Source: Rickettsiales bacterium (GTDB lineage Bacteria; Pseudomonadota; Alphaproteobacteria; Rickettsiales; JANQQO01). Taken from it: a stretch of DNA of 31,618 nucleotides. How positions within the stretch are numbered: the first letter of the stretch is position 1; each line of letters begins with the position of its first letter. A program made the translations under genes and the position numbers. The stretch is taken from the NCBI GenBank assembly GCA_028289305.1, contig JANQQO010000101.1, forward strand, positions 1 through 31,618, in the 5' to 3' direction. This document shows, piece after piece, positions 12,459-29,291 of the stretch. The notes beneath the pieces were generated by a model. It ran no database searches and was not told the origin of the DNA. It saw only the letters and a program-made list of their open reading frames with translations.

Positions 12459-12491
12459 TTCATCAAGCATTCAACCATGGGGTGGTATAAC
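12459..12491 (+). promoter_or_regulatory. second TTCA-N7-TTCA box plus extended -10, upstream of the OMP operon
   Basis: TTCATC aagca TTCAAC (12459-12475), 10 nt, TGG-TATAAC (-10 at 12486-12491). Confidence 0.65.
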
Positions 12492-12533
12492 TCAACATAA
12501 TTAGTTTTTTACTTAGTAACTTATGGAGAGTTT

Positions 12534-13130: not shown

Positions 13131-13161
13131 ATAGTAATTTAAAAATTGGCCCCCTTAAGAA

Positions 13162-14403
13162 ATGCGACCCATTATCACCACATTAGCGCTACTGTTACTC
13201 TTACTCCTTGCTGGGTGTACGACAACACGGGATGTTAAGCCGCTCACGCATGTGGATCATGATTATGGGCAAACAGAAGATGAACAGCGCTTATTCAAAC
13301 GCTCACAGGAGACACATCAAGAACTCGAGAGAAAGGGATATATACTAAAAGACCCTGAGATAACGACGTATATTGAGCGTATCGCCCGTCCTTTAGTTCC
13401 TAAACAAGCAGCAAAAGCAGGCAATTTTAGGTTTTATGTGGTGCGCGACCCAACCGTTAATGCATTTGCTATGCCAAATGGGGGCATTTACTTACATCTT
13501 GGCTTACTCGCCCGTCTAGAAAATGAGCTACAACTTGCTCATTTATTAGCACATGAAATTACACATGTTGTCAAAAGACATGGCCTTAGAGGGTACGATG
13601 AAAGACGCTGGAAAACGACCACAGGAAACATCATGGGTGCATTTATAGGACCGACTCTAGGAGAGCTTCCTTTTGTGGCATCTATCGCTAGTCATAAGCG
13701 TGAATATGAAGAAGAGGCAGATGCTATGGCTTTAGATATACTTTCAAATAATGGATATAACATCACTAATGCGCCTGCGTTTTTTGATGTGCTAGAGGAG
13801 GTTAAAAACCCCGAACGTGTCGAGGGTTCTATCTGGAGCAGCCACCCAGACAGTAAAAAGCGTAAGGCAAGTGCTATAGCTATCGTACAAAGTGGTACCA
13901 TCGCCGTTAACCCAAAAGGAAGAGTGGGTAAGAAAGCATATGAGAAAGTGCGTACAAAATTGGTTAAGGCCAATCTTGATATGCAGCTGCTATCTAAACA
14001 CTATTCACTTGCATTGGAGGCGATAGATCGAGAACTTCGCTTCCACCCACAAGATGCCGAACTGTTCTACTATCGTGGCGAAGTATTTCACCGTATGTTT
14101 TCTGACCCTGAAGGTGCGGCACAAGAATATGCCTGGCTTTACGACAAAACCTTTGATGACGAGTTAAAGAAAAAGTTCACACAACGGAAGGGTGAGTTTT
14201 CTCGCGGTGCTCACCAAGCTTATAATAAAGCAATTAAGCTTAATGGTATAACAAACGCATATAGAGGTAAGGGGCTTTTGGCATATAAACAAAAACAATT
14301 TTCTGACGCCATTCCACTACTAGAGCATTATTTATCACACGGTAAAAATATTCGTGATCGTCGTTATATCACCCGTATTATTCAGGAGATGAGGAAGACA
14401 TGA
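13162..14403 (+). CDS. M48-family zinc metalloprotease lipoprotein with C-terminal TPR-like region (BepA-like)
   Basis: Lipobox LAGC; 'VNAFAMPNGGIY..GLL', HEXXH 'LAHEITH', 'EEEAD', 'SSHP'; helical repeats at the C-terminus. Confidence 0.88.
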   Translation: MRPIITTLALLLLLLLAGCTTTRDVKPLTHVDHDYGQTEDEQRLFKRSQETHQELERKGYILKDPEITTYIERIARPLVPKQAAKAGNFRFYVVRDPTVNAFAMPNGGIYLHLGLLARLENELQLAHLLAHEITHVVKRHGLRGYDERRWKTTTGNIMGAFIGPTLGELPFVASIASHKREYEEEADAMALDILSNNGYNITNAPAFFDVLEEVKNPERVEGSIWSSHPDSKKRKASAIAIVQSGTIAVNPKGRVGKKAYEKVRTKLVKANLDMQLLSKHYSLALEAIDRELRFHPQDAELFYYRGEVFHRMFSDPEGAAQEYAWLYDKTFDDELKKKFTQRKGEFSRGAHQAYNKAIKLNGITNAYRGKGLLAYKQKQFSDAIPLLEHYLSHGKNIRDRRYITRIIQEMRKT

Positions 14404-15149
14404 AAAAATATGCATATATCATTCTCTTACTATTCCTGACAACCGCATGCGGCACCGTAGAACGACGTCACCCTGCTTTTGATGATGCTTTTAAGAAATA
14501 TCATTCTGTTGCTATTTTACCGCCTGAAGTAACAGTAAAATACGTGCAGTTTGATGGAGATAACAAGCGTCTCTCAGAACTTGAAGGGCGTATTACACAG
14601 GAGTTGTTTCAAGAAACCGCAAAGCTATTACAAGAGAAAAAATATAGAGTGTTGCCATTTAACTTTGAGGAAGCGTTCCGACAGCACGACGGTTTAAGCT
14701 TTGAGTTCGAAAAACTAAAATCCATCCATACGTCTCTCATACAAGAAATATACCCCGACTATAGTGTGAGCTTACAAAAATCGGTTGAAGAGGCGTATGC
14801 AACAAAAAAGAGTGTAGGACCCATTGTGAACCAATTTGCCGATATGGCCAACGCCGATATGTTGCTAATAACTAATTATAACGGATTTGAGAAATCAAGT
14901 GGTCTGATTGCAAAGGACATAATTTTTCGTACTGTTCTGCACTCTGTTACAAATAGTTATGGTGGCCCCTCCGATATAGGAGGAGGAAGGCTCGTTGCTG
15001 CACTGCTAGATGGCACCACGGGCGATATATTATGGGTAAATATCGGTAGTGAGTTATACCATCCTCCCTTTACAGGAGAGCTTGGTGCAAAAGACGCCGT
15101 AGAAATGGCGTTAGAGCCCTTGCCAGAGAGAACACCACCACCCCGATAA
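14400..15149 (+). CDS. lipoprotein of unknown function (CsgG/LpoB-like fold suspected)
   Basis: Lipobox TTAC; 'SVAILPP', 'ADMLLIT', 'LLDGTTGDILW'; ATGA overlap with the M48 gene. Confidence 0.7.
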   Translation: MKKYAYIILLLFLTTACGTVERRHPAFDDAFKKYHSVAILPPEVTVKYVQFDGDNKRLSELEGRITQELFQETAKLLQEKKYRVLPFNFEEAFRQHDGLSFEFEKLKSIHTSLIQEIYPDYSVSLQKSVEEAYATKKSVGPIVNQFADMANADMLLITNYNGFEKSSGLIAKDIIFRTVLHSVTNSYGGPSDIGGGRLVAALLDGTTGDILWVNIGSELYHPPFTGELGAKDAVEMALEPLPERTPPPR

Positions 15150-15199
15150 AATAAAATCCATTATTATCAATGTGTTAATGGCAAACAAGGAGGATTACT

Positions 15200-17635
15200 A
15201 TGTCTATTATTAAAGGAACAAACACCAGTGAGACCCTGATAGGGAAAGATGGTGATGATATTATTTATGGCCTTGCTGGTGGAGATACCATTTTAGGCCA
15301 AGGTGGAAATGATCTTATTTATGGTGATGTGCTACCGACTTCTTTAATACTACAAAGCGATCTTTCGCGCTTCAAAGCAACTAATAATATCCAAGTAACC
15401 GATATAGATACCTCACGCTTTACCGAGGATAGCCTTGCTCCTGTTCCAGGGGCATTGTTTATGCCTGTATATGATGACTCTATTATGGGTGGCGATGGTG
15501 ATGATACCATTTATGGTAATCAAGGCGATGACTCGCTCGATGGTGGTACGGGTAACGATTCTATTATTGGTGGCACGGGAGCTGATGCGCTAATAAGCTC
15601 TGCTGGGGATGACACGTTGATAGGCGGTAATGGCGCTGACCTGTTCCGTGTTAGTTCTATATCTACTAATTCAGATAATGTGATTATTGCTGATTTCGTC
15701 AACGGTACAGATACACTAATCCTTGATAATGATGCGATAGATGATGCAAGTACGGCTGCCACAGATTTCTCAGTGACAATTAATAACGAAGCCGGCGGTG
15801 ATATTACCTTTAGTGCACCTGGTAAAAATGGCGACAACGTGGTCTTAACCGGCCTGGCAGGAGCTGGTGAAATAATCGAAGTGCGCGCTGATGATGGTAG
15901 CTTCATCAAGGTTAATACTGGTGGTACTGCAACGCTCTTAGGCAATGATGGCGCAAATCTATCCCTAGGTGCCGGCACGGATGACCTACTCATTGCTGGT
16001 ACAAGCGGCGATCTGCTTGCCGGTCTTGACGGCAACGACAAGCTGCTCGGCAATACCGGTAATGACAGCCTTTTTGGTGGTAGCGGTGATGATAGGCTGA
16101 TTGGTGCTGCAAGCGCTGATACCCTTTTCGGCGGTTCGGGTGTTGATACGCTCATTGGAGGTGATGGCGATGACATCATCGATGTGGGTGGCGATAGAAA
16201 CAATGATGTGGATGCGGGTGCGGGTGATGACCAAGTAACACTGGTTGCTGCAAACACCACACAAGAAATAGAAGGTGGCACAGGCAATGACACCTTGATC
16301 CTAACCGCAATTGCAGACACTACCTATGATTTTAACGGGGATATCGCTGCCAATGATATCCTTGGTTTTGAAACCATTGTGGCAAATGGTACGGATATCA
16401 CCACTATTAACTTTAATGGTAGCTATGTAACGGCTGGAGACATCATCTCCACCGATACCATTACCATTGATGCACGTAATATCACGGTGAACGCTGCTGC
16501 TGATGACTACCTGGTAGTAACCAGCCAGGCTGATGCGGTTGTAAAACTCAACATCACTGGTAGTGACGGTGACGACATCATTGATCTGACACAGACACGA
16601 AATCATACTACCGTCTCCGGTGGCGATGGCGAGGATAATGTGGTTGGTACTGCTTTCCGTGATTCCTTAACTGGGGGTGATGGTAACGATACTATTCATG
16701 GCCGCGGGAGCAACGACACCATAATAGGCGGTAGCGGACACGATATGCTGTATGGTGGTTTTGAAAATGACCTTCTTATCAGTGGTAGCGGCGCCGATAG
16801 CCTTTTTGGTGAGTTTGGCGTTGATACATTAGTGAGTACCGCCGGAGATGATATACTAACGGGCGGCGCGGGCAGTGATTTTATGCGTGTGCACACGGTG
16901 GCAAGCGATTCTGATATTATTGTTATTTCCGACTTCGAAAATGGTGGCGACACACTAATCCTCGATAATGATGCAATAGATGATGCAAGTGCCGCCGCAA
17001 CAGCGTTTACGGTAACTATCGATGATGTAGCGGGCAATGTTACATTTAGTACTTCTGGTGAGAATGCCGATAAGGTGGTTTTACAGGGTTTAGCGGAAAC
17101 CAATCAGATAATCGTGGTACGTGCGGATGACGGAAGCTTCATTAAAATCAACAATACGGATAGCTCAGTAGGTCTTGTGGGCAATGATGGTACAAATCTG
17201 TCACTTGGTGTTGGCAATGATGACCTGCTGATTGCGGGTGCGAGTGGTGATATTCTTTCTGGGATCGATGGAAACGATAAACTCATTAGCAATGACGGTA
17301 ATGATAGTCTATCTGGTGGTAGCGGTAATGATACATTGGTGGGCTCTGCTGGTAACGATACACTTGTCGGCAACACGGGAAGCGACATTTTTGAGTTTGT
17401 CAGAACATCTGCCAACAATGGTAACACTGTAATAGCCGACTTTACGCAAGGCCAGGATACATTATCGTTTAAGGATTATGGTTTTACCTCAATGGAAGAC
17501 CTATCCATAACACAGCAGGATGAAGGAGCGCGTATTACTCTATTCCTAGAGGAGTGGTCATCCGTAGCATCCATAACACTAGCAGGTGTGCATATAGACG
17601 CGTTAACTGAGGGTGATTTTGTCTTCACAAGCTAA
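15200..17635 (+). CDS. RTX / hemolysin-type calcium-binding repeat protein
   Basis: Many GGxGxDxLx nonapeptides; C-terminal 'IADFTQGQDTL' secretion-type tail; GGAGG upstream. Confidence 0.9.
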   Translation: MSIIKGTNTSETLIGKDGDDIIYGLAGGDTILGQGGNDLIYGDVLPTSLILQSDLSRFKATNNIQVTDIDTSRFTEDSLAPVPGALFMPVYDDSIMGGDGDDTIYGNQGDDSLDGGTGNDSIIGGTGADALISSAGDDTLIGGNGADLFRVSSISTNSDNVIIADFVNGTDTLILDNDAIDDASTAATDFSVTINNEAGGDITFSAPGKNGDNVVLTGLAGAGEIIEVRADDGSFIKVNTGGTATLLGNDGANLSLGAGTDDLLIAGTSGDLLAGLDGNDKLLGNTGNDSLFGGSGDDRLIGAASADTLFGGSGVDTLIGGDGDDIIDVGGDRNNDVDAGAGDDQVTLVAANTTQEIEGGTGNDTLILTAIADTTYDFNGDIAANDILGFETIVANGTDITTINFNGSYVTAGDIISTDTITIDARNITVNAAADDYLVVTSQADAVVKLNITGSDGDDIIDLTQTRNHTTVSGGDGEDNVVGTAFRDSLTGGDGNDTIHGRGSNDTIIGGSGHDMLYGGFENDLLISGSGADSLFGEFGVDTLVSTAGDDILTGGAGSDFMRVHTVASDSDIIVISDFENGGDTLILDNDAIDDASAAATAFTVTIDDVAGNVTFSTSGENADKVVLQGLAETNQIIVVRADDGSFIKINNTDSSVGLVGNDGTNLSLGVGNDDLLIAGASGDILSGIDGNDKLISNDGNDSLSGGSGNDTLVGSAGNDTLVGNTGSDIFEFVRTSANNGNTVIADFTQGQDTLSFKDYGFTSMEDLSITQQDEGARITLFLEEWSSVASITLAGVHIDALTEGDFVFTS
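15630..17330 (+). repeat. internal duplication in the RTX gene (two copies, offset 1239 bp)
   Basis: 'DTLILDNDAIDDAS.AAT.F.VTI' and 'VRADDGSFIK' occur twice; DNA 15710-15764 closely matches 16949-17003. Confidence 0.85.
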
Positions 17636-17658
17636 GTACTACCTACATACTTCCTGAA

Positions 17659-17690
17659 AGGGTGCTGCATTCGTGCGGCACCCTCTTTTC
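17659..17690 (+). terminator. intrinsic terminator after the RTX gene
   Basis: Stem AGGGTGCTGCA / TGCGGCACCCT with TTCG loop, followed by CTTTTC. Confidence 0.75.
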
Positions 17691-17871
17691 TCAGCTATTC
17701 CTTGCTAAGTGTACTGCTGTATGCTGATCCGGAATTATTATTTACTAAACTAGGATGGTTTGGTTTTGGGGCTGTAGTAGCTAAGACCTAAAAAGAAGGG
17801 TGAGTAACTGTTAACGAGCGTTTGTGAGTAGCGCAACCTCGGTGCGGTGAGGTTGGATGATGAGGTAGTAC

Positions 17872-18285
17872 TTATAGACTCTTAGTCTCAGCTTTGGCGA
17901 TTTCACGAATAAGTGTGAATAGGGCGTTCTGCAGCTGATGGTTTTGTATTCCATCCAGGCTACCTGCCACCTGAAGAGTCTTTTTATCAAAGGAGTAGAG
18001 GACACTGTGTAAAGTACTTTCGTAATCACCTATACCATCAAAGAAATCATCCAGTGAAACATCGAGCTGTTTACAGAGTGATAAAATGGCCTGAATAGGG
18101 ATGCGGTTATGCCCGCTCTCGTATTTTTGCACTTGCTGGTATGAGATATTGAGCATGGCAGCAACATCTTTCATGCTATACTTCTTCATGCGGCGTATTG
18201 CACGTACTCTCCCACCGAGCTCTTTATAGAAAGGCTCTACTTTTACTATTGGTTGTTTATATATATAAGAACCTCTTTGCTTCAT
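17872..18285 (-). CDS. XRE/HTH_3 transcriptional regulator
   Basis: 'LGGRVRAIRR..KYSMKDVAAML.ISYQQVQKYESGHNRI'; TAATG coupling to the upstream gene. Confidence 0.88.
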   Translation of the reverse strand: MKQRGSYIYKQPIVKVEPFYKELGGRVRAIRRMKKYSMKDVAAMLNISYQQVQKYESGHNRIPIQAILSLCKQLDVSLDDFFDGIGDYESTLHSVLYSFDKKTLQVAGSLDGIQNHQLQNALFTLIREIAKAETKSL

Positions 18286-18659
18286 TATAGTTTGGCCTTA
18301 CTGTTGGGTTGCCACCCTGCAGTGGTGCATGCTTTTTTGTGTTGCGGTAGTACAGTCTCCGGGCATGGAACATCGCTGCCCCAATTGCCGGTATTAATGG
18401 TAAGCACTTTGTGGCAATAGACCTGCTGCATCATGTCTTTGCAGGTGGTGACTTCGTCTTCATCTAGGCAGCGTGAGGCAAATACCTGACGCGCTTGTGC
18501 GGTTTCGGGCGGGCAGTACATGGAATAAGATACGCCACGTACGTCTTTATACCCCCCGTCTTTCTTGCCCCCGCTTTGTGCACATCCCACCAAAAGCAGC
18601 ATGAGAAGGCACCCTGCGAGCACACATTTTCTTGCTAAGTAATACGCTAGTTTTTTCAT
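18285..18659 (-). CDS. cysteine-rich lipoprotein
   Basis: Start reassigned to MKKLAYY (18659), giving a signal peptide with lipobox LVGC; six further Cys in the mature part. Confidence 0.65.
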   Translation of the reverse strand: MKKLAYYLARKCVLAGCLLMLLLVGCAQSGGKKDGGYKDVRGVSYSMYCPPETAQARQVFASRCLDEDEVTTCKDMMQQVYCHKVLTINTGNWGSDVPCPETVLPQHKKACTTAGWQPNSKAKL

Positions 18660-18847
18660 CTTCTTGTTCGTTTTTAGTTTGTACGTAACTTTTGTGGGCA
18701 TTCTAACCATAGGTTATGCCATTTGTAAACACAAAACGTCAGACTTTTTATAAAATTATTACGTTTTGTTGCTATTATAAGGGTATAAAAAGGGTGTTTT
18801 AGGCAGGTAAAAATGCCTATTATCAGTAAGATAGGGTATGGTGGAGG

Positions 18848-19045
18848 TTATTCTTCGGAGCGTGACTCTATTACTCTTTCGCGCCACATTTTTTGAGCAG
18901 TTTCTCTTCTTTCTTTGATCTGGCCACGAACACGCTGGCACCACGATAACGCTTCTTGACGTTTGCGTTCACTTTCTGTGTATACCGCCTTTGCGCGTTC
19001 GGTAGCAAGTTGAGCTATATCTTTTTCTTGATCGCTATCTGCCAA
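18848..19045 (-). CDS. small basic helical hypothetical protein
   Basis: AGAGAGGGG upstream; co-oriented between XRE and lipoprotein genes. Confidence 0.5.
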   Translation of the reverse strand: MADSDQEKDIAQLATERAKAVYTESERKRQEALSWCQRVRGQIKERRETAQKMWRERVIESRSEE

Positions 19046-19066
19046 TGTCCCCCCTCTTTCTTATGG

Positions 19067-19504
19067 TTATCGGCTTTTCTTGTGAGAAAGTGGCAGTGTT
19101 TCTACGAGGTGATCAATGAGATCGTTGCTGATGCTCTCTCCTGGTGATTTGTTGATTAGTGCTTTGTATAGATGGCCTGCAAGATAAGATTTTGCTTCTA
19201 TATCGCTTAAATCCAGCCCCCGCTCCGTAAAAATTTCTTCGGCTTTACGCATGGCAATGGCATGCACTTTGTCATCAAGTACCTTCGAACTATCTTGGGG
19301 CGTTCCTTTTCCTGTGTAAAGCCAGATCCAGTCTACATCCAGCAGATCTGCATAATGTCGAGCGACCGGCTCTTTGATACCGCGATACCCACCTTCATGC
19401 GCACGGTAAGTGCCGATGGGAACACCCGTTTCTTTGCAGAAATCACTTTGCGTTTTATATTTTTGTTTCCGCGCGTGCTTTAATCTGTCTTTGATTTCCA
19501 TCAT
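19067..19504 (-). CDS. phage repressor-like XRE HTH protein without an S24 peptidase domain
   Basis: 'KDRLKHARK...TQSDF...GVPIGTYRAHEGG.R', 'VDWIWLYTGKG'. Confidence 0.82.
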   Translation of the reverse strand: MMEIKDRLKHARKQKYKTQSDFCKETGVPIGTYRAHEGGYRGIKEPVARHYADLLDVDWIWLYTGKGTPQDSSKVLDDKVHAIAMRKAEEIFTERGLDLSDIEAKSYLAGHLYKALINKSPGESISNDLIDHLVETLPLSHKKSR

Positions 19505-19564
19505 GATATGAAGTGTATCATATTAAGCGAAAAACCACTACATTATGTCGATTGTAGTCAGGAA

Positions 19565-20443
19565 ATGTTACGTAATGAAAGAGCCTTCGCATCGATGACG
19601 CTACGTGATAAAAAAGTTGGCATTTTATGGATGGTTTTTACAGCATTCTGGACTGCAGTAATGCTTGTTTTGATTAAGCATTTATCTCATACGGGACTGA
19701 ATACCTTCATTGTTGTTGCGTTACGAAACGTCCTTTCGTTGCTCATTTTCATGTTATTTATAAGCAGGTTACGTATACCAAAAACCACCATGCAGATTCC
19801 TTATTTTTGGCGCGGGGTGGTGGGTATTAGCTCCATGTTGCTATGGACATATGCACTGACGCTTATTGCCGCTTCTGAGGTGACTGCGTTAAGCTATACC
19901 GTTCCCATATTCACGGCGCTGTTGGCAATTTCTGTGTTTAAGGAAAAGCTAAGGATGCACCATGTTATTGGGTTAGTATCGGGAATAATAGGTACGCTTA
20001 TCGTGCTACGACCTGGAACAGAGGCATTTCACTATGCGGGTCTATTGGTTTTAGCCTCCTCACTATTATGGGCGTTGGTAAACCTGATGATAAAGCGTTT
20101 TACTCAGACAGATTCAACCGCCACTATTGTGTTTTATACGTGGGTAATGCTTTCACTTTTATCGATACCAGTAGCAATAGTGACCTGGCAAACACCCACA
20201 TTGGAACAATGGTGCTGGATTGTAGCATTAGGAGTGGTTTCTAATTTAGCTATGTTTTCTTGGGCAAATGCCTATGCAAAAGCTGATTTGGTGGTGTTGA
20301 TGCCATTTGATTTTACGCGGTTGATCTTTGTATCGGTGTTGGCATACGCAGTTTTTAATGAGTCGGTTGACCTCTTGACGATCATAGGCGCTATCATCAT
20401 TTTGTGTAGCACCACCTATGCGGCAAAAAAAGAAGCCACTTAA
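19565..20443 (+). CDS. DMT/EamA-family transporter
   Basis: About 10 hydrophobic segments, 'ASEVTALSYTVPIF..LLA', 'KEKL', 'MPFDFTRLIF'. Start 19565 or 19595; 19508 is too close to the divergent gene. Confidence 0.9.
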   Translation: MLRNERAFASMTLRDKKVGILWMVFTAFWTAVMLVLIKHLSHTGLNTFIVVALRNVLSLLIFMLFISRLRIPKTTMQIPYFWRGVVGISSMLLWTYALTLIAASEVTALSYTVPIFTALLAISVFKEKLRMHHVIGLVSGIIGTLIVLRPGTEAFHYAGLLVLASSLLWALVNLMIKRFTQTDSTATIVFYTWVMLSLLSIPVAIVTWQTPTLEQWCWIVALGVVSNLAMFSWANAYAKADLVVLMPFDFTRLIFVSVLAYAVFNESVDLLTIIGAIIILCSTTYAAKKEAT

Positions 20444-20464
20444 AAACGTTTTTTCTCTGTTTCG

Positions 20465-20497
20465 TTAACCATTTATTAACCTTTCTTATGGTATAAT
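20465..20497 (+). promoter_or_regulatory. CtrA box TTAA-N7-TTAAC at the -35 position plus TATAAT
   Basis: TTAA CCATTTA TTAAC (20465-20480), including the TTAACCAT half-site; TGG-TATAAT at 20492-20497. Confidence 0.75.
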
Positions 20498-20536
20498 CCG
20501 CCATATATTAGGTAATAATGGGTAGGAAGATTAAGA

Positions 20537-20875
20537 ATGGCAGACTCCAGCACAAATATGGATGCTGTAAATAAGGAAAAACAGTTGTTTAACAAGCTGT
20601 TGCTCTTTTATGATATTGCCGAAAAGATGTTGGATGCTGTTGAGAGCGATACCGTAGAGAATGGTGAACAGCAGTTTGCTATTTCAGAATCGATGATGCA
20701 GCAAATACAGGACACAACGGATGCGCTGACAGAGGAATTCACACATTTTTGTGATAATGATCTGCAGCCAGACCCTCAAATTTCGAGGAAAATGGACGCT
20801 GCGATACGTCAATTCTTTGCTGAGATGGATCAGTTTAAAGAGAGGGTACAAAAACTTGCGGCAGAAGCGAATTAG
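20537..20875 (+). CDS. acidic all-helical hypothetical protein
   Basis: First ORF after the CtrA promoter, with a purine-rich RBS; no recognised family. Confidence 0.7.
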   Translation: MADSSTNMDAVNKEKQLFNKLLLFYDIAEKMLDAVESDTVENGEQQFAISESMMQQIQDTTDALTEEFTHFCDNDLQPDPQISRKMDAAIRQFFAEMDQFKERVQKLAAEAN

Positions 20876-20886
20876 GGGAGTAAGAA

Positions 20887-21156
20887 ATGGTACAAGGTGT
20901 AAAAAGTACTGAACCTCATGGCCCGCTGCGTAGAGGTATTGCAGAAGCAGGTGAACAGCTTGGTCCAGGGCGTGGCCAGGTTTTGTGCGACCTTGCTGTA
21001 GAGGCTATTACATTAATGGTAGAAATGGCAGAAAGACTTAGAAGCGACTATCGTCTTACAGATCCAAGTGCAGTACCAGATCGTGATTTGGCAAGAAAAC
21101 TTAATCGTGAGCAGATCACCAAAGAGCAGGGTGTTGGCACGCATAAGGAGCTTTAA
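20887..21156 (+). CDS. hypothetical protein
   Basis: GGGGAG RBS; TAATG coupling to the next gene. Confidence 0.6.
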   Translation: MVQGVKSTEPHGPLRRGIAEAGEQLGPGRGQVLCDLAVEAITLMVEMAERLRSDYRLTDPSAVPDRDLARKLNREQITKEQGVGTHKEL

Positions 21157-22676
21157 TGTCCACCTCCAGTTATGATTCTGTAAAGCAGCTCGTTGCTAGC
21201 AAGGAGTTGCGGATTATTGGGATTGAAGCACCTGCACGGACGAGTTCTACAACATTAGAAATTGCGCTGTCGGAAAGCCCAAGCGTACATACCCATTCTA
21301 GCCAACCTTTTCATATACCAAACGAGAATCCTGACGGTTCCACGCCTTCAGTGGATAACCCATATATCCCTATAGAGAACAGGGAAGAGAGGGCATATAG
21401 TCTGATATTGGAGACATTTGAACGCGGTAAGGCTACTAACAGTGATCGTCCTGTTGTTGTGGTGGTAAAGGAGATGTCTCGCAATTTGGGGATTGGTGAT
21501 CAATTTTCTCGCTGGGTAGAATTAACAGACAAAAATGTACTGATGGTGCGTGATCCACAGTTAAGTGTGGAATCGATTATCCGTTTGCAGCTTCATGATC
21601 TTGAGGAAAGACAGGCTGTGCTTACGCAGGACATTAATCAATATGCTAAAGATCGTGGTTTTGAAGATATTATCGGCGAGCAGCAGGGGTGGCGCGGAGG
21701 AGAGATTGGCTTAGGGCAACATTGGCGTAAAATGGTTCACATTCTTGTCGGTACGGAGAGCGAGATAGGAAAAAGAGAATACGGTGATTTTACAGATATC
21801 TTGCAAGAATTTTCCACCCATTGGGATTTAAACTCTCAGCAGGGTAGCGTGTTGGCAGATTTTATTACGCAGATAACAGATGAAGATGCACAAAAATTAG
21901 GCCACGCCTCGTTAAACGCTTTTGCCAAATCATCGGGACATGCGAATTGGGGAACCATGCTCGCGACAACCCTGCGTGCGGAGCAGATTAATGTAAGTGC
22001 ATTTCAGCCGTTCTTAGATCGTATATTTTCTGCGAGTTGTACCGGGTGGAGGCATACAGAAACTATCGCGCAGAAGATTGAGGGCCATGATTATGTGGTA
22101 GTAGATGCTTCTGTTTTGCGCACCCACCCGGAGGATATACTACAAGAATTAACGCAATTCCTGGATATTGACTATGTCCCCACCATGGCTAAAGGCTGGC
22201 AAAAAGCTAATAGACAACACTTTGATACCAGCGCATTTGAGCCAGGGTTTTTGTCGGCGTTTGCGCGTGCCAGAGGATCGGATGCGATAGAGCCACCAAG
22301 AGAATCACCCATTATATCCGCTGCTTTTCCACCACAATTCGCAGACCACCTGAAAGAGACAGCGTTTCCTACCTATATTGGTCTACTGAGCGACGAAAAA
22401 GCCGTTCGACCACATGGCAAAGAAGCGCTTAATACACTCTTTGATACGGCTATTGGTGGTGCTGCATTGAGAGATATTGACCCTGTATTCGCGTATAGTA
22501 TGGTTATTACGGATATGAATCTGGCAAAGGATGATAAATCTGCAATGCTGGCAGAGATCCGAACAAAATATGCTAAGGATTTTGGTGATGTGTTTGATCG
22601 TATTGATGAAATAGCAGCAGAACTAGAGATGGGAAATAGAATAGGGAGAAGGCAGGATGGGACTGTCGGAAGATAA
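21156..22676 (+). CDS. sulfotransferase-like P-loop protein (Sulfotransfer_5-like) with a large insertion
   Basis: 'PARTSSTTL...SQPF', 'VVKEM', 'LMVRDPQLSVES', 'VVVDASVLRTHPEDILQELTQFLDIDY' parallel the PSB-loop/RDP architecture. Confidence 0.6.
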   Translation: MSTSSYDSVKQLVASKELRIIGIEAPARTSSTTLEIALSESPSVHTHSSQPFHIPNENPDGSTPSVDNPYIPIENREERAYSLILETFERGKATNSDRPVVVVVKEMSRNLGIGDQFSRWVELTDKNVLMVRDPQLSVESIIRLQLHDLEERQAVLTQDINQYAKDRGFEDIIGEQQGWRGGEIGLGQHWRKMVHILVGTESEIGKREYGDFTDILQEFSTHWDLNSQQGSVLADFITQITDEDAQKLGHASLNAFAKSSGHANWGTMLATTLRAEQINVSAFQPFLDRIFSASCTGWRHTETIAQKIEGHDYVVVDASVLRTHPEDILQELTQFLDIDYVPTMAKGWQKANRQHFDTSAFEPGFLSAFARARGSDAIEPPRESPIISAAFPPQFADHLKETAFPTYIGLLSDEKAVRPHGKEALNTLFDTAIGGAALRDIDPVFAYSMVITDMNLAKDDKSAMLAEIRTKYAKDFGDVFDRIDEIAAELEMGNRIGRRQDGTVGR

Positions 22677-22932
22677 AATAGAAAAGATTGCACAGCGTAA
22701 AGTAGAAGACTACATGCAGGATGTGCTCGTGAAGCATGTGTTGCAGGCAGAAACAGATGCTTCAGTGGTAATGAAGGCAGTGCATGAGGATGCTTTAAAG
22801 AGCTGTGTCTTCAACGATTCTGATATCAGCAAAGAAGACCTTGCGGCGCTACAAAACGCCTTGAAGCAAGAGATTGACCGTTATTTCAAAGCTATTCTTC
22901 GCAAAGTAGAGGGAAAGACCGAGGAGTTTTAG
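22657..22932 (+). CDS. hypothetical helical protein
   Basis: Overlaps the 3' end of the preceding gene; purine-rich upstream region. Confidence 0.55.
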   Translation: MGLSEDKIEKIAQRKVEDYMQDVLVKHVLQAETDASVVMKAVHEDALKSCVFNDSDISKEDLAALQNALKQEIDRYFKAILRKVEGKTEEF

Positions 22933-23197
22933 TAAAAGCGGTGATTGCAGGGGCCACCATTATTGCCATAGCAATTATTTTTTCTTAGAAATCATCGATT
23001 ATCAGGTCATCTCTTCTCAGGCTGTATTTACTAGCACTGACCCTTTCTCTGCACCTTTGTGATGAGTTGCTCTAATTATTCCTACAACTCTTAGTTGGTT
23101 TTTTCTTGCATCTTGGTGTCGCAATTATGTATATATCATGTACATATAAATCTGCATGGGGTGCATATCATACAAGAAAGACTGAGAAGACGCTATT

Positions 23198-23929
23198 ATG
23201 CCTTTGCCAGAAAGGGAATATTTCGATTTGTCTGCGCTTGCAAAGCGGTGGCAAACAACCGTTCAAGATGTTCAGCATTATGCGGAAACGGGTAAATTGC
23301 GTTGTTCTGTATGGCTTGACCAAATATCAGTAGAAACAGGGGTATTTAAAAAACGGGCTAATGGCCAAAAGCTATTCGAACCACTTGAGAAGCTCTATAT
23401 TGAGGGTTTTGTAGGGATTAGACCAGAGGATTGTCGGCGTTTGTTCCGAAACGAGCGTGCTAGTACCACTGTTTTTGTCTCGCTCAAGCAGGAAAATCTC
23501 TATCTACATATCACTAGGGAAACCGAGGCCAAGATCGCTATTGAGCCAAAAGATTTAGTGGTGAGGGCTATTGATCGCGATCATTTTGAGCGTATCAATG
23601 GTCTAGGCACCGGCGTTTCATCCATTTTGGTAAATGGATTTTGTGAGAATGGGGGTGTTTTTGAGCGTTCTAAGAAATTCTCTCACAGCGCAGACTTTAC
23701 TACCGTGACTATTTCAGGAGAAATCTTTCGTTTTGGTATGATTCAAGCCAAAATTGTGAGTTTGCTTTATGGTGCTTATACGCGTGGTGATCCATGGGTG
23801 CACGGCAAAACGCTGCTTTATAATGCGGGGTCGCAAAGTGAGCGCATAAAAAGCATATTCCAGAGCAAACCTAGCTGGCGCAAGCTCATAAAATCCGATG
23901 GACGCGGTTATTACGCGCTTGATCTATAG
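23198..23929 (+). CDS. putative DNA-binding protein typical of alphaproteobacterial prophage-like elements
   Basis: N-terminal HTH-like 'YFDLSALAKRWQTTVQDV..YAETGKL'; C-terminal winged-helix-like 'FRFGMIQAKIV..L...PWVHGK.LL..AGS....IKSIF...W..LIKSDGRGYYAL'. Confidence 0.65.
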   Translation: MPLPEREYFDLSALAKRWQTTVQDVQHYAETGKLRCSVWLDQISVETGVFKKRANGQKLFEPLEKLYIEGFVGIRPEDCRRLFRNERASTTVFVSLKQENLYLHITRETEAKIAIEPKDLVVRAIDRDHFERINGLGTGVSSILVNGFCENGGVFERSKKFSHSADFTTVTISGEIFRFGMIQAKIVSLLYGAYTRGDPWVHGKTLLYNAGSQSERIKSIFQSKPSWRKLIKSDGRGYYALDL

Positions 23930-23944
23930 CGCGTGCGATGCCCG

Positions 23945-24090
23945 CAGACCACTCCACCACCACATATCCCCCACTCATCATCCAGTAAGATAGTTGACCT
24001 TATAGAAACATCCTTTTTCTCTTGGGGTGTGGGATGATGTGCATCGTCCAATAAACCGCCATCAGACCTCACGACATCCCCACCCATCAT
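23945..24090. repeat. CCCC-AC-CATCAT direct and inverted repeats
   Basis: ATCCCCCACTCATCAT (23966-23981), ATCCCCACCCATCAT (24076-24090), and related GGGGTGTGGGATGATG on the opposite strand (24024-24039); both direct copies are preceded by CAGACC. Confidence 0.7.
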
Positions 24091-24133
24091 TTGTCAGTCT
24101 TCCGTTCGAACAGTTCAAACAACGGAGGCAAAA

Positions 24134-24346
24134 ATGAACGATTCAAAACATCCAAGAATTACTCTGAAAGATATCCGGCATATATCTGTAGAAACGTTAA
24201 TCAAGCTTGATATTACCCAACTGCGAAGTCTTGAAGAAGAGGCCGATAAGGAACTCTATGCAGCAGGCACCCAATTGGAGTGGGTGCGCGGAATTATCAC
24301 AAAGAAGCTTCGCGATACGTCGATTTCCAAAAAATCCGCCTCTTGA
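24134..24346 (+). CDS. small hypothetical phage-element protein
   Basis: GGAGG RBS; 'RITLKDIR...LRSLEEEA...LEWVRG' resembles small early proteins of such elements. Confidence 0.65.
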   Translation: MNDSKHPRITLKDIRHISVETLIKLDITQLRSLEEEADKELYAAGTQLEWVRGIITKKLRDTSISKKSAS

Positions 24347-24354
24347 GGTTCATG

Positions 24355-25515
24355 ATGTCAATGGAATGGTACAGGGCGTATCACGGTATGCCACATGATC
24401 CCAAATTGCAGGTAGTAGCAAAGCGTAGCAAGCAGCCTATGGCTTTTGTGGTGGCAGTTTGGGTCTACATACTCGATGCTGCCTCACAGCATGATCCTCG
24501 CGGTATGGTCGAGATTGATCCAGAAGAGGTGGCGGTCATCCAGGACATCGATCTGGAGGTGGTGGAAACCATTCTGGATGTGCTCACATCCAAGAAGCTT
24601 ATCGACGACGAAGGCAATGTAGTGAACTGGCATAAGCGCCAGCACACCACATCCACCGAGCGCTCTAAGAAGAGCCGCGAGAAAAAGAAGCGCGATGCAG
24701 CGGCAAGCAACAGCAAACAGTGCCGTGCAACGACACACAGCGCAGAACGACGGAAAAAAGGTAAAAAACACCCAGATACAGATAAAGATACAGAAGCAGA
24801 TTTAGATACAGATCAGATTACACATACAGATTTAAAAAACAGAGCGAGAGAAGAAAAGAGGGAGTCACAGGGAGAAAAACAGCAAATCAGTGGAAAAGGT
24901 ACAGAGCAGAACAAAACACAAATTCTTCAACAAATGGCAGATATCTGGAATGAAAAGGTTCAGAGTAAGATCACACCAAGCCAAAATGTCATACTCACAC
25001 CTAAACGCAAAGAGCTGCTGGCAGCCAGATGGGTAGATGAATTTGCGGAGGATATAAGAGGTTGGCGCTATTTCTGTGAGGTTATCGGCACATCGGATTT
25101 TTGTCTCGGTAGGATTAAAGGTAAGGACTGGACGATTGACTTGACCTGGGCGATCCAGTCGCCCGATCGTGTAGCAAAAATCCTTGAAGGTGGTTTTTCC
25201 GGAGGCAAGCATCCTCCCAAGCCGCCATCATGTACTATCCCTGAATTCCAGGATGCATGGGATGAAGTCATCAAGCGGATGGTACATCACCACGGCTCCG
25301 CAGCTATCCGCAGCTGGTTTACGAGCACCGTTATCACAACCCCCATCGATACGCCGGATGGTGTGATGCTTACACTTGAATGTCCTCGTGAGTTTGTGTG
25401 TGGCTGGATTGAAGAACATTATCTCAACGATCTAAATTTCTACTGGTCTGAGCAATCGCAAATTTCTCACACAGTGGTCGGCATTCAGCTTGCAGTGCGG
25501 GGGAGTCGGACATGA
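24355..25515 (+). CDS. phage-type replication initiator with a C-terminal DnaA domain-I-like region
   Basis: N-terminal 'W.RAYHGMPHDPKL..VA', 'NWHKRQ....ERSKKSR' replisome-organiser-like; DTD repeats; C-terminal 'W..V..RM....G.AA.RSWF...LTLECPREFVCGWIEEHY'. Start 24355 (or 24352) follows GAGG. Confidence 0.75.
   Translation: MSMEWYRAYHGMPHDPKLQVVAKRSKQPMAFVVAVWVYILDAASQHDPRGMVEIDPEEVAVIQDIDLEVVETILDVLTSKKLIDDEGNVVNWHKRQHTTSTERSKKSREKKKRDAAASNSKQCRATTHSAERRKKGKKHPDTDKDTEADLDTDQITHTDLKNRAREEKRESQGEKQQISGKGTEQNKTQILQQMADIWNEKVQSKITPSQNVILTPKRKELLAARWVDEFAEDIRGWRYFCEVIGTSDFCLGRIKGKDWTIDLTWAIQSPDRVAKILEGGFSGGKHPPKPPSCTIPEFQDAWDEVIKRMVHHHGSAAIRSWFTSTVITTPIDTPDGVMLTLECPREFVCGWIEEHYLNDLNFYWSEQSQISHTVVGIQLAVRGSRT
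24774..24833 (+). repeat. AGATACAGA iteron-like repeats within the rep gene
   Basis: AGATACAGA at 24774, 24786 and 24804; ACATACAGA at 24822. Confidence 0.65.
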
Positions 25516-25916
25516 ATGATAATTTCAAAAAATGGACCGTGACTGACGTTGCTGACCGATTCGAGGAAGCAGCACTGACTCTAAAGCGTATGCCACCAGT
25601 GCGGATAAAAGGGTATTTCAGCACGTGGCCGGAGATCGTGCATACTACGATGGAAAAGCTGCAATGCGACCGGCGACCGCTGCGTATGGGGCCACCATCG
25701 CCAGATGCTATTAGTCGGATGGAAGAAACTATTCAGTGGATTTTCTGGCTCGATGGAGAGGAGGAGCGAAAGCTTATATGGCTTCGTGCGGCTCGCGTGC
25801 CCTGGAAATCGATATATTGGCGTCTTGGCTGCGGGCGTACCAAGGCATGGCAGATGTGGACATACGCGCTTCTGAAGATTGTTACTCGCCTTAATGCAAG
25901 GCAGGAAGGGCGTTAG
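25512..25916 (+). CDS. DUF6362-family protein (putative phage transcription regulator)
   Basis: 'W....VADRFEEAA.TLKRMP.VR.KGYFSTWPE', 'PPSP.AISRMEET..W', 'IWLRA....WK.I..RLG..R..AW..W..AL..I..RLN'. Confidence 0.8.
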   Translation: MNDNFKKWTVTDVADRFEEAALTLKRMPPVRIKGYFSTWPEIVHTTMEKLQCDRRPLRMGPPSPDAISRMEETIQWIFWLDGEEERKLIWLRAARVPWKSIYWRLGCGRTKAWQMWTYALLKIVTRLNARQEGR

Positions 25917-25917
25917 G

Positions 25918-26214
25918 ATGTTCGAACAAAAAAACACTAAACAGGGTGAACAAAAAACGTTATCTTCACTAATAGAGTCGCGAGAGGTGGATGCGAAACC
26001 TCTTTCAGCATACGATACGCTCGTAGAGGCGATTAGGCGTTCCCATCCGGAAAAATTATCAGAAAGAGAATCTCACACCATTGCCCGGCGTCTTATGGGG
26101 TTTTGTGAGCATGTAATGAGGGTTCATGATCGACTAGAACGGGAGAAACAGCAGAATCAACTTGATAAAGAGGGGGTTCATGGCAATGTGACAGATAAAA
26201 AGCGAGGTGAATGA
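25918..26214 (+). CDS. small helical protein coupled to the recombinase
   Basis: ATG 1 nt after the DUF6362 stop; ATGA overlap with the recombinase. Confidence 0.65.
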   Translation: MFEQKNTKQGEQKTLSSLIESREVDAKPLSAYDTLVEAIRRSHPEKLSERESHTIARRLMGFCEHVMRVHDRLEREKQQNQLDKEGVHGNVTDKKRGE

Positions 26215-27809
26215 TGTCACATGCCAGTAAAGCGGTTATACTTGTAAGGGTGTCGAGTGAGGAGCAGGAAGAGGGGCATTCGCTTGATGCTCAGAAAGCC
26301 AGGCTCATTGATTATTGTGAGCGGCGAAATCTAGAAGTCCTTAATACATATACTATTATCGAATCTTCAACGCGTGGTGATCGCAAGCAGTTCATGGCAA
26401 TGCTTGAGTTTGCCAAACAGCAGAAACAAACCATCGCCATTGTTGCGGATGCGGTAGACCGCGTGCAGCGAAGCTTTAAGGATTCAGTATACCTGGATGA
26501 TTTGATCCGCCAGGAAAAGATCGAGCTGCATTTTTATCGCGAAGGTATGATTATTAACAAAGATGCCAGTGCTTCGGACATTATGCGCTGGGATTTTTCG
26601 GTTATGGGCGCAAAGAGCTACGTATTACAGCTATCAGAGAACGTGAAGCGTAGCCTGGATTGGAAATTAAAGAAGGGAGAGTGTATCGGCAGCGCCCCAC
26701 TTGGTTACCTGAATGAAAGGGATGAGGATGGCAATAGCGCTGTGGTGGTTGACCCAGTGCGTGGGCCGCTCATTCGCCGCTTCTTTTATGAATACGCAAA
26801 AGGAACATACACACTTTCTGATATGACCAGAAAATGTAAGGAATGGGGATTGCGTAGCAAAAAGGACTGCTATGTGAGCAAAGCGGTACTACATAATCTT
26901 TCACAGAACCCGTTTTATTATGGTGAGATGTATGTCAAAGGTGACTACTACTCACACAAGTATGAGCCGTTGATCACTAAGGATGTTTTTTTAGATTGTC
27001 AGGCAGTCAGAGAAGGTTGGAACAAGAAACCATTCAGATATGGCGGAAAAGAATACTTGTTTCGTGGGTTGTTGACCTGCTCTGTAACGGGCAGAATGGT
27101 GACAGCCGACACAAAAACCAAAACCTATGCTAGCGGCAAAACTGCAGAATGGACATATCTCGGCACATGGAATCCTGATAATCCGAAGCGCAAAATGTGG
27201 ATGCGCGAGGAAAAGGTGATAGAAAAAATTGACGATATACTGAAAAATATTGGGTGTCGGAATCCAGAATTGCTCGACTTGGCTGCTGCTGCAGTGAAGG
27301 AAACAAACGAGTTCAAGCAACACTACCACGATCGTGAGGTGACGGCTCTAAAGAAAGAACATGCTGATATTCAGAAAAGACTGGATCGTATGTTAGATTT
27401 GCTGGCAGAGGGCGTTATTGATAGGGAGGATTTCAAGCATAAGAAAGACCTGATGAAAAATCGACAGCGTGAAATCCTGCAGTTGATATCGGCACATGAT
27501 GGGGCAGATGAAGCCTTTTCAAATACAATGATAAAACTGTTAAGATTTGCTTCAGCAGCCCATTATGGCTTTATGGGTTCGAACCTAGAAGAAAAACGGG
27601 AACTCTTGAATTTTGTGTTTTCGAACCTGCAATTAAAAGGGACAACTCTTTGTTATTCCTTGAATTTTCCATTTGATAGGTTTGAAAATTTGGCCGAAAC
27701 AGAAGAATGGCTGGGGCGGCAGGATTCGAACCTGCGCATGCCGATACCAAAAACCGGTGCCTTACCACTTGGCTACGCCCCAATCGTCCGAAAAGAGTGC
27801 GGAGTATAA
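26211..27809 (+). CDS. large serine recombinase (resolvase + recombinase + degenerate Zn-ribbon + coiled coil)
   Basis: Catalytic 'LVRVSSEEQ', 'DAVDRVQR', 'ENVKRSL..K...G......PLGY', 'NPFYYG', 'HEP-like YEPLIT..VF', 'LFRGLLTC'. The frame continues through the antisense of tRNA-Gln. Confidence 0.92.
   Translation: MMSHASKAVILVRVSSEEQEEGHSLDAQKARLIDYCERRNLEVLNTYTIIESSTRGDRKQFMAMLEFAKQQKQTIAIVADAVDRVQRSFKDSVYLDDLIRQEKIELHFYREGMIINKDASASDIMRWDFSVMGAKSYVLQLSENVKRSLDWKLKKGECIGSAPLGYLNERDEDGNSAVVVDPVRGPLIRRFFYEYAKGTYTLSDMTRKCKEWGLRSKKDCYVSKAVLHNLSQNPFYYGEMYVKGDYYSHKYEPLITKDVFLDCQAVREGWNKKPFRYGGKEYLFRGLLTCSVTGRMVTADTKTKTYASGKTAEWTYLGTWNPDNPKRKMWMREEKVIEKIDDILKNIGCRNPELLDLAAAAVKETNEFKQHYHDREVTALKKEHADIQKRLDRMLDLLAEGVIDREDFKHKKDLMKNRQREILQLISAHDGADEAFSNTMIKLLRFASAAHYGFMGSNLEEKRELLNFVFSNLQLKGTTLCYSLNFPFDRFENLAETEEWLGRQDSNLRMPIPKTGALPLGYAPIVRKECGV
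27708..27782 (-). tRNA. tRNA-Gln (anticodon UUG), 75 nt with encoded CCA
   Basis: Reverse complement TGGGGCGTAGCCAAGTGGTAAGGCACCGGTTTTTGGTATCGGCATGCGCAGGTTCGAATCCTGCCGCCCCAGCCA: D-arm, anticodon stem CCGGT/ATCGG with TTG, T-loop GGTTCGAATCC. Confidence 0.97.
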
Positions 27810-27830
27810 TAATAAAATGCGGCAGTGCAA
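27803..27830 (-). promoter_or_regulatory. putative tRNA promoter
   Basis: Minus strand TTGCAC-N16-TATACT followed by the GC-rich discriminator CCGCAC. Confidence 0.55.
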
Positions 27831-27835
27831 ATGAT

Positions 27836-28168
27836 TTACGCAGGCGTTTTGCCGCCGGTGTTTTCTGCATTCCACTCCAGAAATGCAGGATTTCCTTCGC
27901 TAATAGGCCAGGCGACCACACATGGGCAATCATAGGAATGCTCCGCCTTAACCTGGGCAATCACCTTTTCTACTAGTTCTTTCCTGGTTTTTGCGATGAG
28001 CACGCATTCCGCCGCCGCTTCAATCGCGCCTTCCCACCAATAAAGCGATTGCATCTGCGACAGAATATTCACGCACGCAACCAGCTTCGCCTCCAACAAA
28101 CTGCGGCCCAAGCGCGTGGCTTCCTCGTGGTCTTTTGTGGTGATATATACTAGGTAAGCATCAGACAT
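27836..28168 (-). CDS. cutA: divalent-cation tolerance protein CutA
   Basis: 'EA..LGR.LLEAKLVACVNI....SLYWWEG.I....E..LIAKT', 'HSYDCPCVV'. Confidence 0.93.
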   Translation of the reverse strand: MSDAYLVYITTKDHEEATRLGRSLLEAKLVACVNILSQMQSLYWWEGAIEAAAECVLIAKTRKELVEKVIAQVKAEHSYDCPCVVAWPISEGNPAFLEWNAENTGGKTPA

Positions 28169-28349
28169 GATGCCGCAGTATAGCGCTATCCCACAACATA
28201 ATGCAATAATCCGACTTTAACCGTTTACATTTCCTGCATATTTTGCTACACAGCCCCACGCTTAATAAATCGGGTGGTATAGCAGGGTAAAAACCACGCT
28301 ATCTCCTGCGGTAAGCAAAGAAACGGCGGCATTTAAGGAAGCACCATCG

Positions 28350-29291
28350 ATGAAAATCATTACCTGCAACAGTAACCGACCACTGGCAGAAAATATCTCA
28401 AAAGAGCTGGATGTCCCTTTGGTGAATGCAGAAGTGCACCGTTTTGCCGATCAAGAAGTGTTTGTAGAGATCAAAGAAAATGTTCGTGGTGAGGATGTAT
28501 TCCTGATTCAGTCTACCTCTTACCCGGCGAATGACCATATTATGGAATTATTGGTGTGCGCTGATGCGCTGCGCCGCGCCTCAGCAAAGCGTATCACTAC
28601 GGTGATCCCGTATTTCGGCTATGCGCGGCAAGACCGTAAACCAGGGCCCCGTACCCCGATTTCCGCCAAATTGGTTGCTAATCTCATCACTGTGGCAGGG
28701 GCTAATCGCGTATTAACCTTAGACCTTCACGCAGGGCAGATTCAGGGCTTTTTCGACATCCCGCTTGATAACCTCTATGCTGCGCCTGTCTTTGTATCAG
28801 ACATCAAGAAAAACTTTACTGCTGAGGATGTTACGGTGGTTTCTCCTGATGTTGGTGGCGTGGTGCGCGCCCGTGCGATTGCGAAGCGGCTCCATACCGA
28901 TCTGGCGATTGTTGATAAACGGCGTCCACGTGCAGGATCCTCGGAAGTCATGAATATTATTGGCGATGTGCATGATAGAGATTGCATTATTGTGGATGAT
29001 ATTGTAGATACGGCCGGCACATTGTGCAATGCGGCCGAGGCGTTGATGGAAAAAGGCGCCAAATCGGTGACTGCCTATATCACCCATGGGGTGCTATCGA
29101 ACAGTGCAGCGGAGCGGGTGGCGAAGTCTTCCCTTACCTCGCTGGTGGTAACCGATAGCATCGGGGTAACAGAGGCGGTAGAAGCCGCAAAGAATATTCG
29201 GGTGCTGACGATTGCTCCGCTGATGGCCGAAGCCATGCGGCGGATTTCAGAAGAATCGTCGGTATCAAGCTTGTTTGAAGATGTTGCATAA
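28350..29291 (+). CDS. prs: ribose-phosphate pyrophosphokinase
   Basis: '[13 protein letters not shown]', '[14 protein letters not shown]', '[12 protein letters not shown]', '[14 protein letters not shown]'. Confidence 0.98.

Follow-up and report, generated by a model that had tools for sequence, protein, structure and literature searches.

We describe the integrase gene of a prophage in a 31,618-nt contig (JANQQO010000101.1, C7) of assembly GCA_028289305.1 from a Rickettsiales bacterium (JANQQO01); the contig was analyzed as a whole and is referred to here as the window. The gene encodes a large serine recombinase and runs in antisense through the complete gene of the host tRNA-Gln(UUG). Most probably, this is the integrase of a prophage of about 43 kb located at the tRNA-Gln gene's 3′ end, and its C-terminal tail, which depends on the integration state, is a tolerated by-product of this architecture. 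Sequence comparison moreover indicates that the protein belongs to a large family of serine integrases that target tRNA 3′ ends and whose genes overlap their own phage attachment site (attP) in a fixed register. This family is apparently undescribed so far, and its common layout is a more interesting finding than the single tail swap.

The overlap of integrase and tRNA involves the following features:

26211–27809, plus strand: large serine recombinase (integrase) gene in its prophage form, 532 amino acids (open reading frame, ORF, and translation)
27708–27782, minus strand: tRNA-Gln(UUG), anticodon ttg, intact, with encoded CCA (ARAGORN)
27831–27803, minus strand: sigma-70-like promoter match upstream of the tRNA, TTTGCA-17-TATACT (consensus scan)

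ARAGORN was used to call tRNAs in the window, in the assembly and at the loci of relatives. The tRNA-Gln(UUG) is the only tRNA of the window and also the sole tRNA-Gln among the 36 tRNAs found in the assembly, which has 287 contigs and is 91% complete. A first-pass annotation, made from the sequence of the window, had described the integrase frame as open through all 75 nt of the tRNA with a stop ending at 27809, and ORF and ARAGORN analysis bear this out: the frame crosses the tRNA in antisense without a stop of its own and terminates with TAA at 27807–27809. Codon 500 (TGG, 27708–27710) is the antisense of the CCA end of the tRNA. From 27708 on, the codons read TGG CTG GGG CGG CAG GAT TCG AAC, codons 500–524 (WLGRQDSNLRMPIPKTGALPLGYAP) span the whole tRNA, and IVRKECGV and the stop follow. 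Residues 1–499 are encoded by the element, 500–505 by the attachment (att) core and 506–532 by the host. The open frame as such is not beyond chance, i.e., for 33 codons (61/64)^33 is about 0.2.

Pfam profiles, which were used for domain assignment, place Resolvase (PF00239) at residues 8–157 (E 1.7e-16) and Recombinase (PF07508) at residues 184–268 (E 4.6e-8, above the gathering score) of the integrase, and because of these two domains we classify it as a large serine recombinase. S15, Q19, D80, D83, R84 and R87 are invariant in 30 homologues, with the nucleophile S15 in an RVSS motif; by sequence, the closest solved structure is the catalytic domain of the TP901-1 integrase. An AlphaFold2 (AF2) model built with a 30-sequence alignment has a helix at 121–154, the long E-helix before PF07508, strands at 298–332, long helices at 352–456 and strands at 470–484, which fits a zinc-ribbon/coiled-coil layout. 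Only two cysteines, C263 and C290, are invariant among the homologues, and a four-cysteine zinc site is therefore not evident. The model is ordered to about residue 500, and the predicted local distance difference test score (pLDDT) falls below 50 for residues 503–532. In the model, the C-terminus is placed just after the last strands of the DNA-binding domain.

A protein search returned 946 homologues of the integrase. Viral contigs scanned with the single protein yielded nothing, and an alignment-based scan returned loci. Our family set drew 80 loci from species genomes and a further 28 from viral contigs, and on all of them the Trp codon was located and ARAGORN was run. C-terminal alignment showed that the conserved body ends in ...NFPFDxFxNxxxCxEW and that the sequence beyond resembles the antisense of different tRNAs. 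The closing Trp is at least 90% conserved in the 30-sequence alignment, invariant in a 19-sequence C-terminal alignment and kept in 73 of the 80 genome loci. A minus-strand tRNA begins at the first base of its TGG codon in 56 of these 73 loci, and this register of Trp codon and CCA in 56 related loci is far beyond chance. The tRNAs cover 14 amino acids (Ser, Arg, Asn, Gln, Trp, Asp, Pro, Glu, Leu, Ile, Ala, Val, His and Met) with 23 anticodons, and integrase and tRNA are convergent in every tRNA-linked member. Hosts are mostly metagenome-assembled genomes (MAGs) of Rickettsiales and other Alphaproteobacteria, Tisiphia, Megaera and Micavibrio among them; the hosts of the 80 loci further include single MAGs of Legionellales and Bdellovibrio type.

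We defined the tail as the residues after the conserved Trp and took as null a random geometric process running to the first stop. Tails at the 56 loci are 2–170 residues long, with a mean of 22.9 and a median of 15, compared with a geometric expectation of 20.3, and 39 of the loci have their first stop within the tRNA, the other 17 past it. A recurrent 'DSN' in the tails results from reading the conserved T loop in antisense in this frame, and in the integrated state tails are conserved only as far as the tRNA itself imposes. Selection for a long tail that keeps the ORF open through the tRNA was considered as well and rejected, the family tail lengths matching the no-selection expectation. 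At one locus (L035:3895–4205) the frame is open through a tRNA-Ser into a second tRNA (Phe), giving a 98-residue tail; the tail of 170 residues is found at L044:3983–4498.

The prophage could be delimited with a second contig of the same assembly, C22. When the assembly was searched by short-word BLAST with the tRNA region, the last 18 nt of the tRNA 3′ end (ATCCTGCCGCCCCAGCCA) came up again, unchanged, at C22:15425–15442, a position at which ARAGORN called no tRNA; the window itself has no second copy of at least 13 nt of the tRNA region. The element and its attachment site are made up as follows:

27708–27725, no strand: 18-bp att core at attR, TGGCTGGGGCGGCAGGAT; tRNA nucleotides 59–76 including CCA, integrase codons 500–505 (WLGRQD)
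27726–27809, plus strand: host-encoded integrase tail SNLRMPIPKTGALPLGYAPIVRKECGV and stop, replaced by VLGLRPYVSIS and stop in the attP form (attP reconstruction)
1–27707, plus strand: right-hand 27.7 kb of the prophage (Pfam)
C22:1–15424, reverse complement: left 15.4 kb of the prophage (Pfam)

attL and attR are identical over exactly 18 bp, with a sharp break at either end. At the C22 copy, a trailer of the form CCCGCTTTCGCTAATTT-hairpin-AGCTACAGCGC starts at the first base after CCA. Such a trailer directly follows CCA in 7 of the 36 tRNA genes of this genome; its exact 13-mer has three genomic copies, i.e., after tRNA-Val, after tRNA-Lys and at C22, and the full tRNA-Gln in the window is without it. 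C22:1–15424 carries genes for two terminases, one small and one large (gpA-type), as well as for a lambda-type portal, a protease-capsid fusion, a tape measure protein, a ParB-methylase and a gpZ-like protein, and no integrase was found there with Pfam. Moreover, the last ORF of C22 covers positions 2–108 of the DUF2460 profile and the first ORF of the window positions 110–205. As these ORF ends are consecutive halves of one DUF2460 gene, we place C22 and the window next to each other inside this gene. From the trailer, the phage genes on the inner side and the DUF2460 continuity we conclude that the C22 repeat is the displaced native 3′ end of the tRNA, i.e., attL. With 15,424 and 27,707 nt in the two contigs, the prophage therefore measures about 43.1 kb.

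This arrangement carries the Islander signature, with an intact tRNA-Gln at 27708–27782, an 18-nt displaced fragment at C22:15425–15442 in direct orientation and the integrase between them. The attL that the first-pass annotation had proposed to look for was thus found on another contig of the assembly, and the annotation's placement of the crossover in the 3′ part of the tRNA agrees with the identity block. The crossover presumably lies somewhere in this 18-bp block or at its edge, and a symmetry scan of the reconstructed attP did not fix the crossover dinucleotide. The reconstructed attP also has an outer inverted repeat, GGCCGAA/TTCGGCC, with its center of symmetry at the block's midpoint, a hint of a serine-integrase attP of about 52 bp.

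Translation of the reconstructed attP gave an integrase of 516 residues (...EEWLGRQD-VLGLRPYVSIS-stop) in place of the prophage form of 532 residues (...EEWLGRQD-SNLRMPIPKTGALPLGYAPIVRKECGV-stop). The forms diverge from codon 506, with 27 host-encoded versus 11 phage-encoded residues, and both tail sequences hold wherever the crossover falls within the 18-bp block. The dependence of the tail on the integration state, as anticipated in the first-pass annotation, is hence supported in silico. Neither form carries an ssrA-like -AA tag, the excised one ending in ...RPYVSIS and the prophage one in ...KECGV.

We propose the following course of events. The prophage of about 43 kb would have entered the one tRNA-Gln gene found, at its 3′ end. 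Since the 18-bp block common to attP and the bacterial site attB begins with the Trp500 codon, attP overlaps the 3′ end of the integrase gene, and because this gene has no stop of its own, translation would run on into whatever lies past the junction. In the prophage state, 27 codons of antisense tRNA and host spacer would be read, giving 532 residues in total; in the excised circle, the frame would continue for 11 codons into phage DNA of the opposite element end, giving 516. As the sequence after the Trp codon is constrained by the tRNA or its attP copy, a stop would occur only where the tRNA sequence offers one. The tail past the core would then be a disordered, tolerated appendage, its length set by the first chance stop. 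We infer in this proposal both that the element is active and that its tail is neutral.

Several relatives appear unable to exchange their tails. After TGG, L052, L056, L038 and L039 (Ser) and the viral contig L009 (Gln, CUG) have no more than a 3′ fragment of a tRNA. These fragments match the integrated relatives L054, L044 and L035 to about the anticodon loop and then diverge. The stop lies well inside the element-borne fragment in L052, L056, L038 and L009, i.e., as TGA in the T stem for the Ser types and ten codons after Trp in L009, and because it precedes the junction, the tail would be the same in both states. L054, which is integrated, and L005, a contig ending at the stop, both have WRKL-stop. 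Given these non-swapping relatives, we regard the state-dependent tail as contingent on the first stop and not as a conserved family feature.

The fragments suggest an identity block of about 45–57 nt for the Ser and Gln(CUG) relatives, as compared with 18 nt here. In L052 and L038, the two loci examined in this respect, DNA past the fragment is cargo-like or host-like (e.g., TauE, MoaE, MobA, LigB); we therefore term the fragment junctions attP-like or tandem-array and do not assign them to free phage. A comparison of the C22 phage proteins with DNA downstream of the attP-like relatives gave one short, unrelated match. Fragments are located at L052:4000–4060 and L009:4050–4120, and L056 and L038 have similar sequence past the break, though their integrases differ. 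For two further relatives, L109 (Gln) and L048 (Asp), BLAST found no displaced tRNA fragments in their genomes; an identity block that is too short, or decay of the elements, may account for this.

Clades without a tRNA also keep the Trp, together with a conserved extension of about 20 residues, W-x4-D-[ST]-L-R-T.... They include nine Bacteroidota genome loci from Spirosoma, Kordia, Pedobacter and others (L066, L069, L073, L074, L081, L085, L086, L089 and L110). Viral-contig forms of these clades (L006, L015/L020, L016/L021 and L024–L026, about four groups) have the ssrA-like ends -RIAA, -AIAA, -HLAA and -LLAA, and the genome forms, which are integrated, have unrelated ends. By sequence, a tail swap with loss of a degradation tag would agree with this pattern.

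For the integrase of the window we favor the by-product explanation because of the low pLDDT of the tail, the lack of an ssrA-like tag on either form, the family tail lengths and the relatives that cannot swap. For the same reasons, a regulatory meaning of the swap, as the BPs analogy of the first-pass annotation may suggest, is not supported. A number of observations nevertheless weigh against our preferred explanation. The low tail pLDDT probably reflects in part the absence of alignable homologous sequence, and tail neutrality is argued from statistics and a structure model. Tails may well matter in this family, since the non-tRNA clades keep their extension and their viral forms end in -AA. 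No empty attB was seen among 30 relatives of the same order, where tRNA-Gln and prs are present and the C22 flank genes are not syntenic. The junction word GCAGGATGTACTCGGCC had 133 matches in metagenome and viral contigs, all of which we ascribe to chance because none reaches into att context, and no physical attP/attB junction was observed in relatives or contig scans. Finally, a host-like cargo of about 15 kb between lysis and immunity modules is uncommon in phages, and the element could be composite or decayed.

We consider it unlikely that the swap is a regulatory device, comparable to phage Mx8 IntP/IntX or phage BPs, in which the isoforms would differ in stability, directionality or partner binding and so sense integration. 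This analogy draws on the divergence of the two forms from codon 506, on the modeled C-terminus directly after the last strands of the DNA-binding domain, on the non-tRNA clades with their conserved tail and viral-contig ends such as -IAA or -LAA, and on precedents set by the Mx8 tyrosine recombinase (PMC6070905) and the BPs repressor (PMC4557955). It is at odds with the ends ...RPYVSIS and ...KECGV, neither of which is ssrA-like, with integrated tails that vary from 2 to 170 residues and are conserved only as the tRNA imposes, with the several relatives whose stop precedes the junction, and with the low model confidence in the tail. On present evidence, regulation by the tail is therefore less likely than an architectural by-product. 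An effect at the RNA level is conceivable, if doubtful. Because the native trailer hairpin no longer follows the tRNA but sits at attL, 43 kb away, the tRNA promoter might in the prophage drive antisense RNA that damps the integrase, and this would be absent in the circle; conversely, read-through of integrase mRNA could interfere with the tRNA promoter. The convergent arrangement in every tRNA-linked member and the displaced trailer on C22 speak for such an effect. Moreover, a consensus scan found no terminator-like site on either strand in 27400–28400, and the minus-strand sequence downstream of the tRNA has no unusually stable fold (z = 0.12). However, tRNA 3′ processing may quickly remove trailer RNA, and a missing consensus terminator is weak evidence of read-through. 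The first-pass annotation had already noted an integrase mRNA antisense to the tRNA, and indeed the gene is fully antisense to the sole tRNA-Gln found in the incomplete assembly, with no terminator-like site between. Its statement that the integrase stop lies inside the tRNA promoter is plausible insofar as the stop codon overlaps the -10 hexamer of the sigma-70-like match. This match is the only one upstream of the tRNA, compared with 2.0 expected from shuffles, i.e., it is not above chance, and the promoter itself is putative.

It is improbable that the C22 repeat is the scar of another event and not attL, or that the integrase belongs to a satellite-like element of 4.6 kb at 23198–27707, in which case the excised tail would be different or invariant. 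Host-like genes do fill 7.9–23 kb of the window, serine integrases need only a 2-bp overlap, so that a short, undetectable attL within the window is conceivable, and no attL fragments were found for the relatives L109 and L048. Yet no stretch of the tRNA region of 13 nt or longer recurs in the window. The C22 copy shows no mismatch, stops at CCA and is followed by the tRNA trailer of this genome, and the packaging genes on its inner side are contiguous with the tail genes of the window; C22 has no other integrase. Rather speculatively, the overlap of integrase C-terminus and attP might serve the whole family as an integration sensor, through the tail swap and/or tRNA-driven antisense, and the family might provide a naturally retargetable set for almost any tRNA 3′ end; we regard this reading as unlikely. 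If true, the sensor would alter enzyme stability, level or directionality, a parallel among serine recombinases to Mx8 IntP/IntX and BPs.

In its protein architecture the integrase resembles those of phiC31, Bxb1, TP901-1 and Listeria A118/LI, with a resolvase domain bearing the catalytic Ser, a Recombinase domain and, as modeled, a putative helical, coiled-coil-like insert in a β-rich C-terminal domain. As with phiC31-type large serine recombinases, the gene lies at one end of the prophage beside the att site. Unlike these enzymes, which have protein-coding or intergenic targets, it targets a tRNA 3′ end, and its attP overlaps the 3′ end of its own gene. Classic serine integrases typically have an attP/attB identity of few base pairs, in contrast to the 18 bp found here. 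With tyrosine-integrase tDNA islands and prophages (Islander), for which sublocations in the anticodon loop, in the T loop and at the 3′ end are distinguished, the element shares the regenerated tRNA, the displaced 3′ fragment in direct orientation and a block from inside the T loop to CCA. It differs from them by its serine recombinase, which is convergent with the tRNA and overlaps it, and by the fixed register of Trp and CCA.

Mx8, which also targets tRNA-Asp genes, offers a comparison for the tail. Like its IntP/IntX, the integrase ORF described here crosses the crossover region, with 516 versus 532 residues in silico. The Mx8 integrase is a tyrosine recombinase, i.e., of another superfamily and mechanism. 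In Mx8, attP lies inside the integrase gene, so that the integrated phage has a recombinant gene with another 3′ end and hence a changed enzyme (PMC6070905; PMC4383910). There, a large C-terminal part is replaced and a change in activity was reported, whereas here 11 or 27 residues past the folded body are concerned, as known from sequence. Integrase genes that extend across attP have been noted for Mx8 and SSV (PMC4383910). In BPs, the repressor gene spans attP, and viral and prophage isoforms have different C-termini (PMC4557955). The analogy to BPs drawn in the first-pass annotation therefore applies to an isoform switch by an att site in an ORF; as the split BPs gene encodes a repressor and not an integrase (PMC4557955), Mx8 integrase is the closer precedent (PMC6070905). 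Moreover, the viral form in BPs has an ssrA-like tag and neither form has one here.

According to Islander (2014), serine integrases were not known to have tRNA genes as their targets. In a tycheposon preprint, a large serine recombinase is listed, with no further detail, for 27 of the 937 integrative elements, which comprise tycheposons and cryptic elements. Later surveys stratify integration sites by integrase type and describe no such serine family. We found no published account of the architecture in which the Trp codon matches CCA, in a literature coverage that was incomplete and leaves its absence unproven. tRNA genes have been viewed as a preserve of tyrosine integrases; here, a serine family with at least hundreds of members occupies the CCA ends of tRNA genes with 14 specificities, in an unvarying codon register. 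Island and prophage finders that look for tyrosine integrases alone next to tRNA fragments will overlook such elements. The family illustrates how one serine-integrase scaffold can be retargeted among many related sites, which bears on the engineering of genome-writing tools, and it offers a simple system for asking whether an integrase gene that spans its own attP uses its isoforms for control.

The 3′ end of the integrase gene contains further tRNA-like sequence:

27578–27586 and 27620–27628, plus strand: two extra copies of the T-arm-like word TTCGAACCT

A third copy of TTCGAACCT is the T arm of the tRNA itself at 27725–27733. These three matches compare with 0.11 expected, and none of 100 shuffles reached three. 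In the homologues, the motif FxF[S/A/Q]NL is encoded with xxG-AAC in 51 of 51 sequences and, where it contains Ser, with TCG-AAC in 24 of 24, compared with a background codon use in these genes of 17% TCG for Ser and 42% AAC for Asn. The conserved TTCGAACC words in the integrase 3′ end point to a putative constraint at the DNA or RNA level about 87 nt from the att core.

The trailer found at attL recurs elsewhere in the genome. Its consensus, (C/T)C(C/T)GCTTTCGC-AT-rich hairpin-AGCTACAGCGC, was seen on contigs C3, C43, C126, C178, C180, C261 and C117 and at C22:15443–15500, and it may be a terminator, a processing element or a repeat family. Integrases 81–83% identical to that of the window reside in L001 and L002 at the same CutA-flanked tRNA-Gln. 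For the SEC-C protein adjoining attL, its relatives L258 and L259 do not share the arrangement. In the viral contig L259 (2337–6019), a SEC-C-motif homologue of 46% identity lies beside a tRNA-Gln(UUG), and a different serine recombinase of 506 residues is encoded immediately upstream of it.

From attL to attR, the prophage contains packaging, head and tail genes, with GTA-like tail genes on the side of the window, followed by holin and lysozyme, about 15 kb of low-GC cargo, helix-turn-helix (HTH) regulators, a DnaA_N replication initiator, DUF6362, a small ORF and the integrase. The cargo at 7923–23000 is host-like, has a GC content of 0.40–0.44 and separates the lysis genes from the immunity and replication module. 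It encodes NfeD with an SPFH/Band-7 protein, a PepSY/two-component system, an outer membrane protein (OMP) with an M48 protease, an EamA transporter, HTH regulators and an RTX-repeat protein of 811 residues. The small ORF at 25879–26214 (111 residues) has no Pfam family and overlaps the integrase start (ATGA); it is a tentative candidate for a recombination directionality factor. Small ORFs also occupy the same position upstream of the integrase in L001 (98 residues) and L002 (56 residues).

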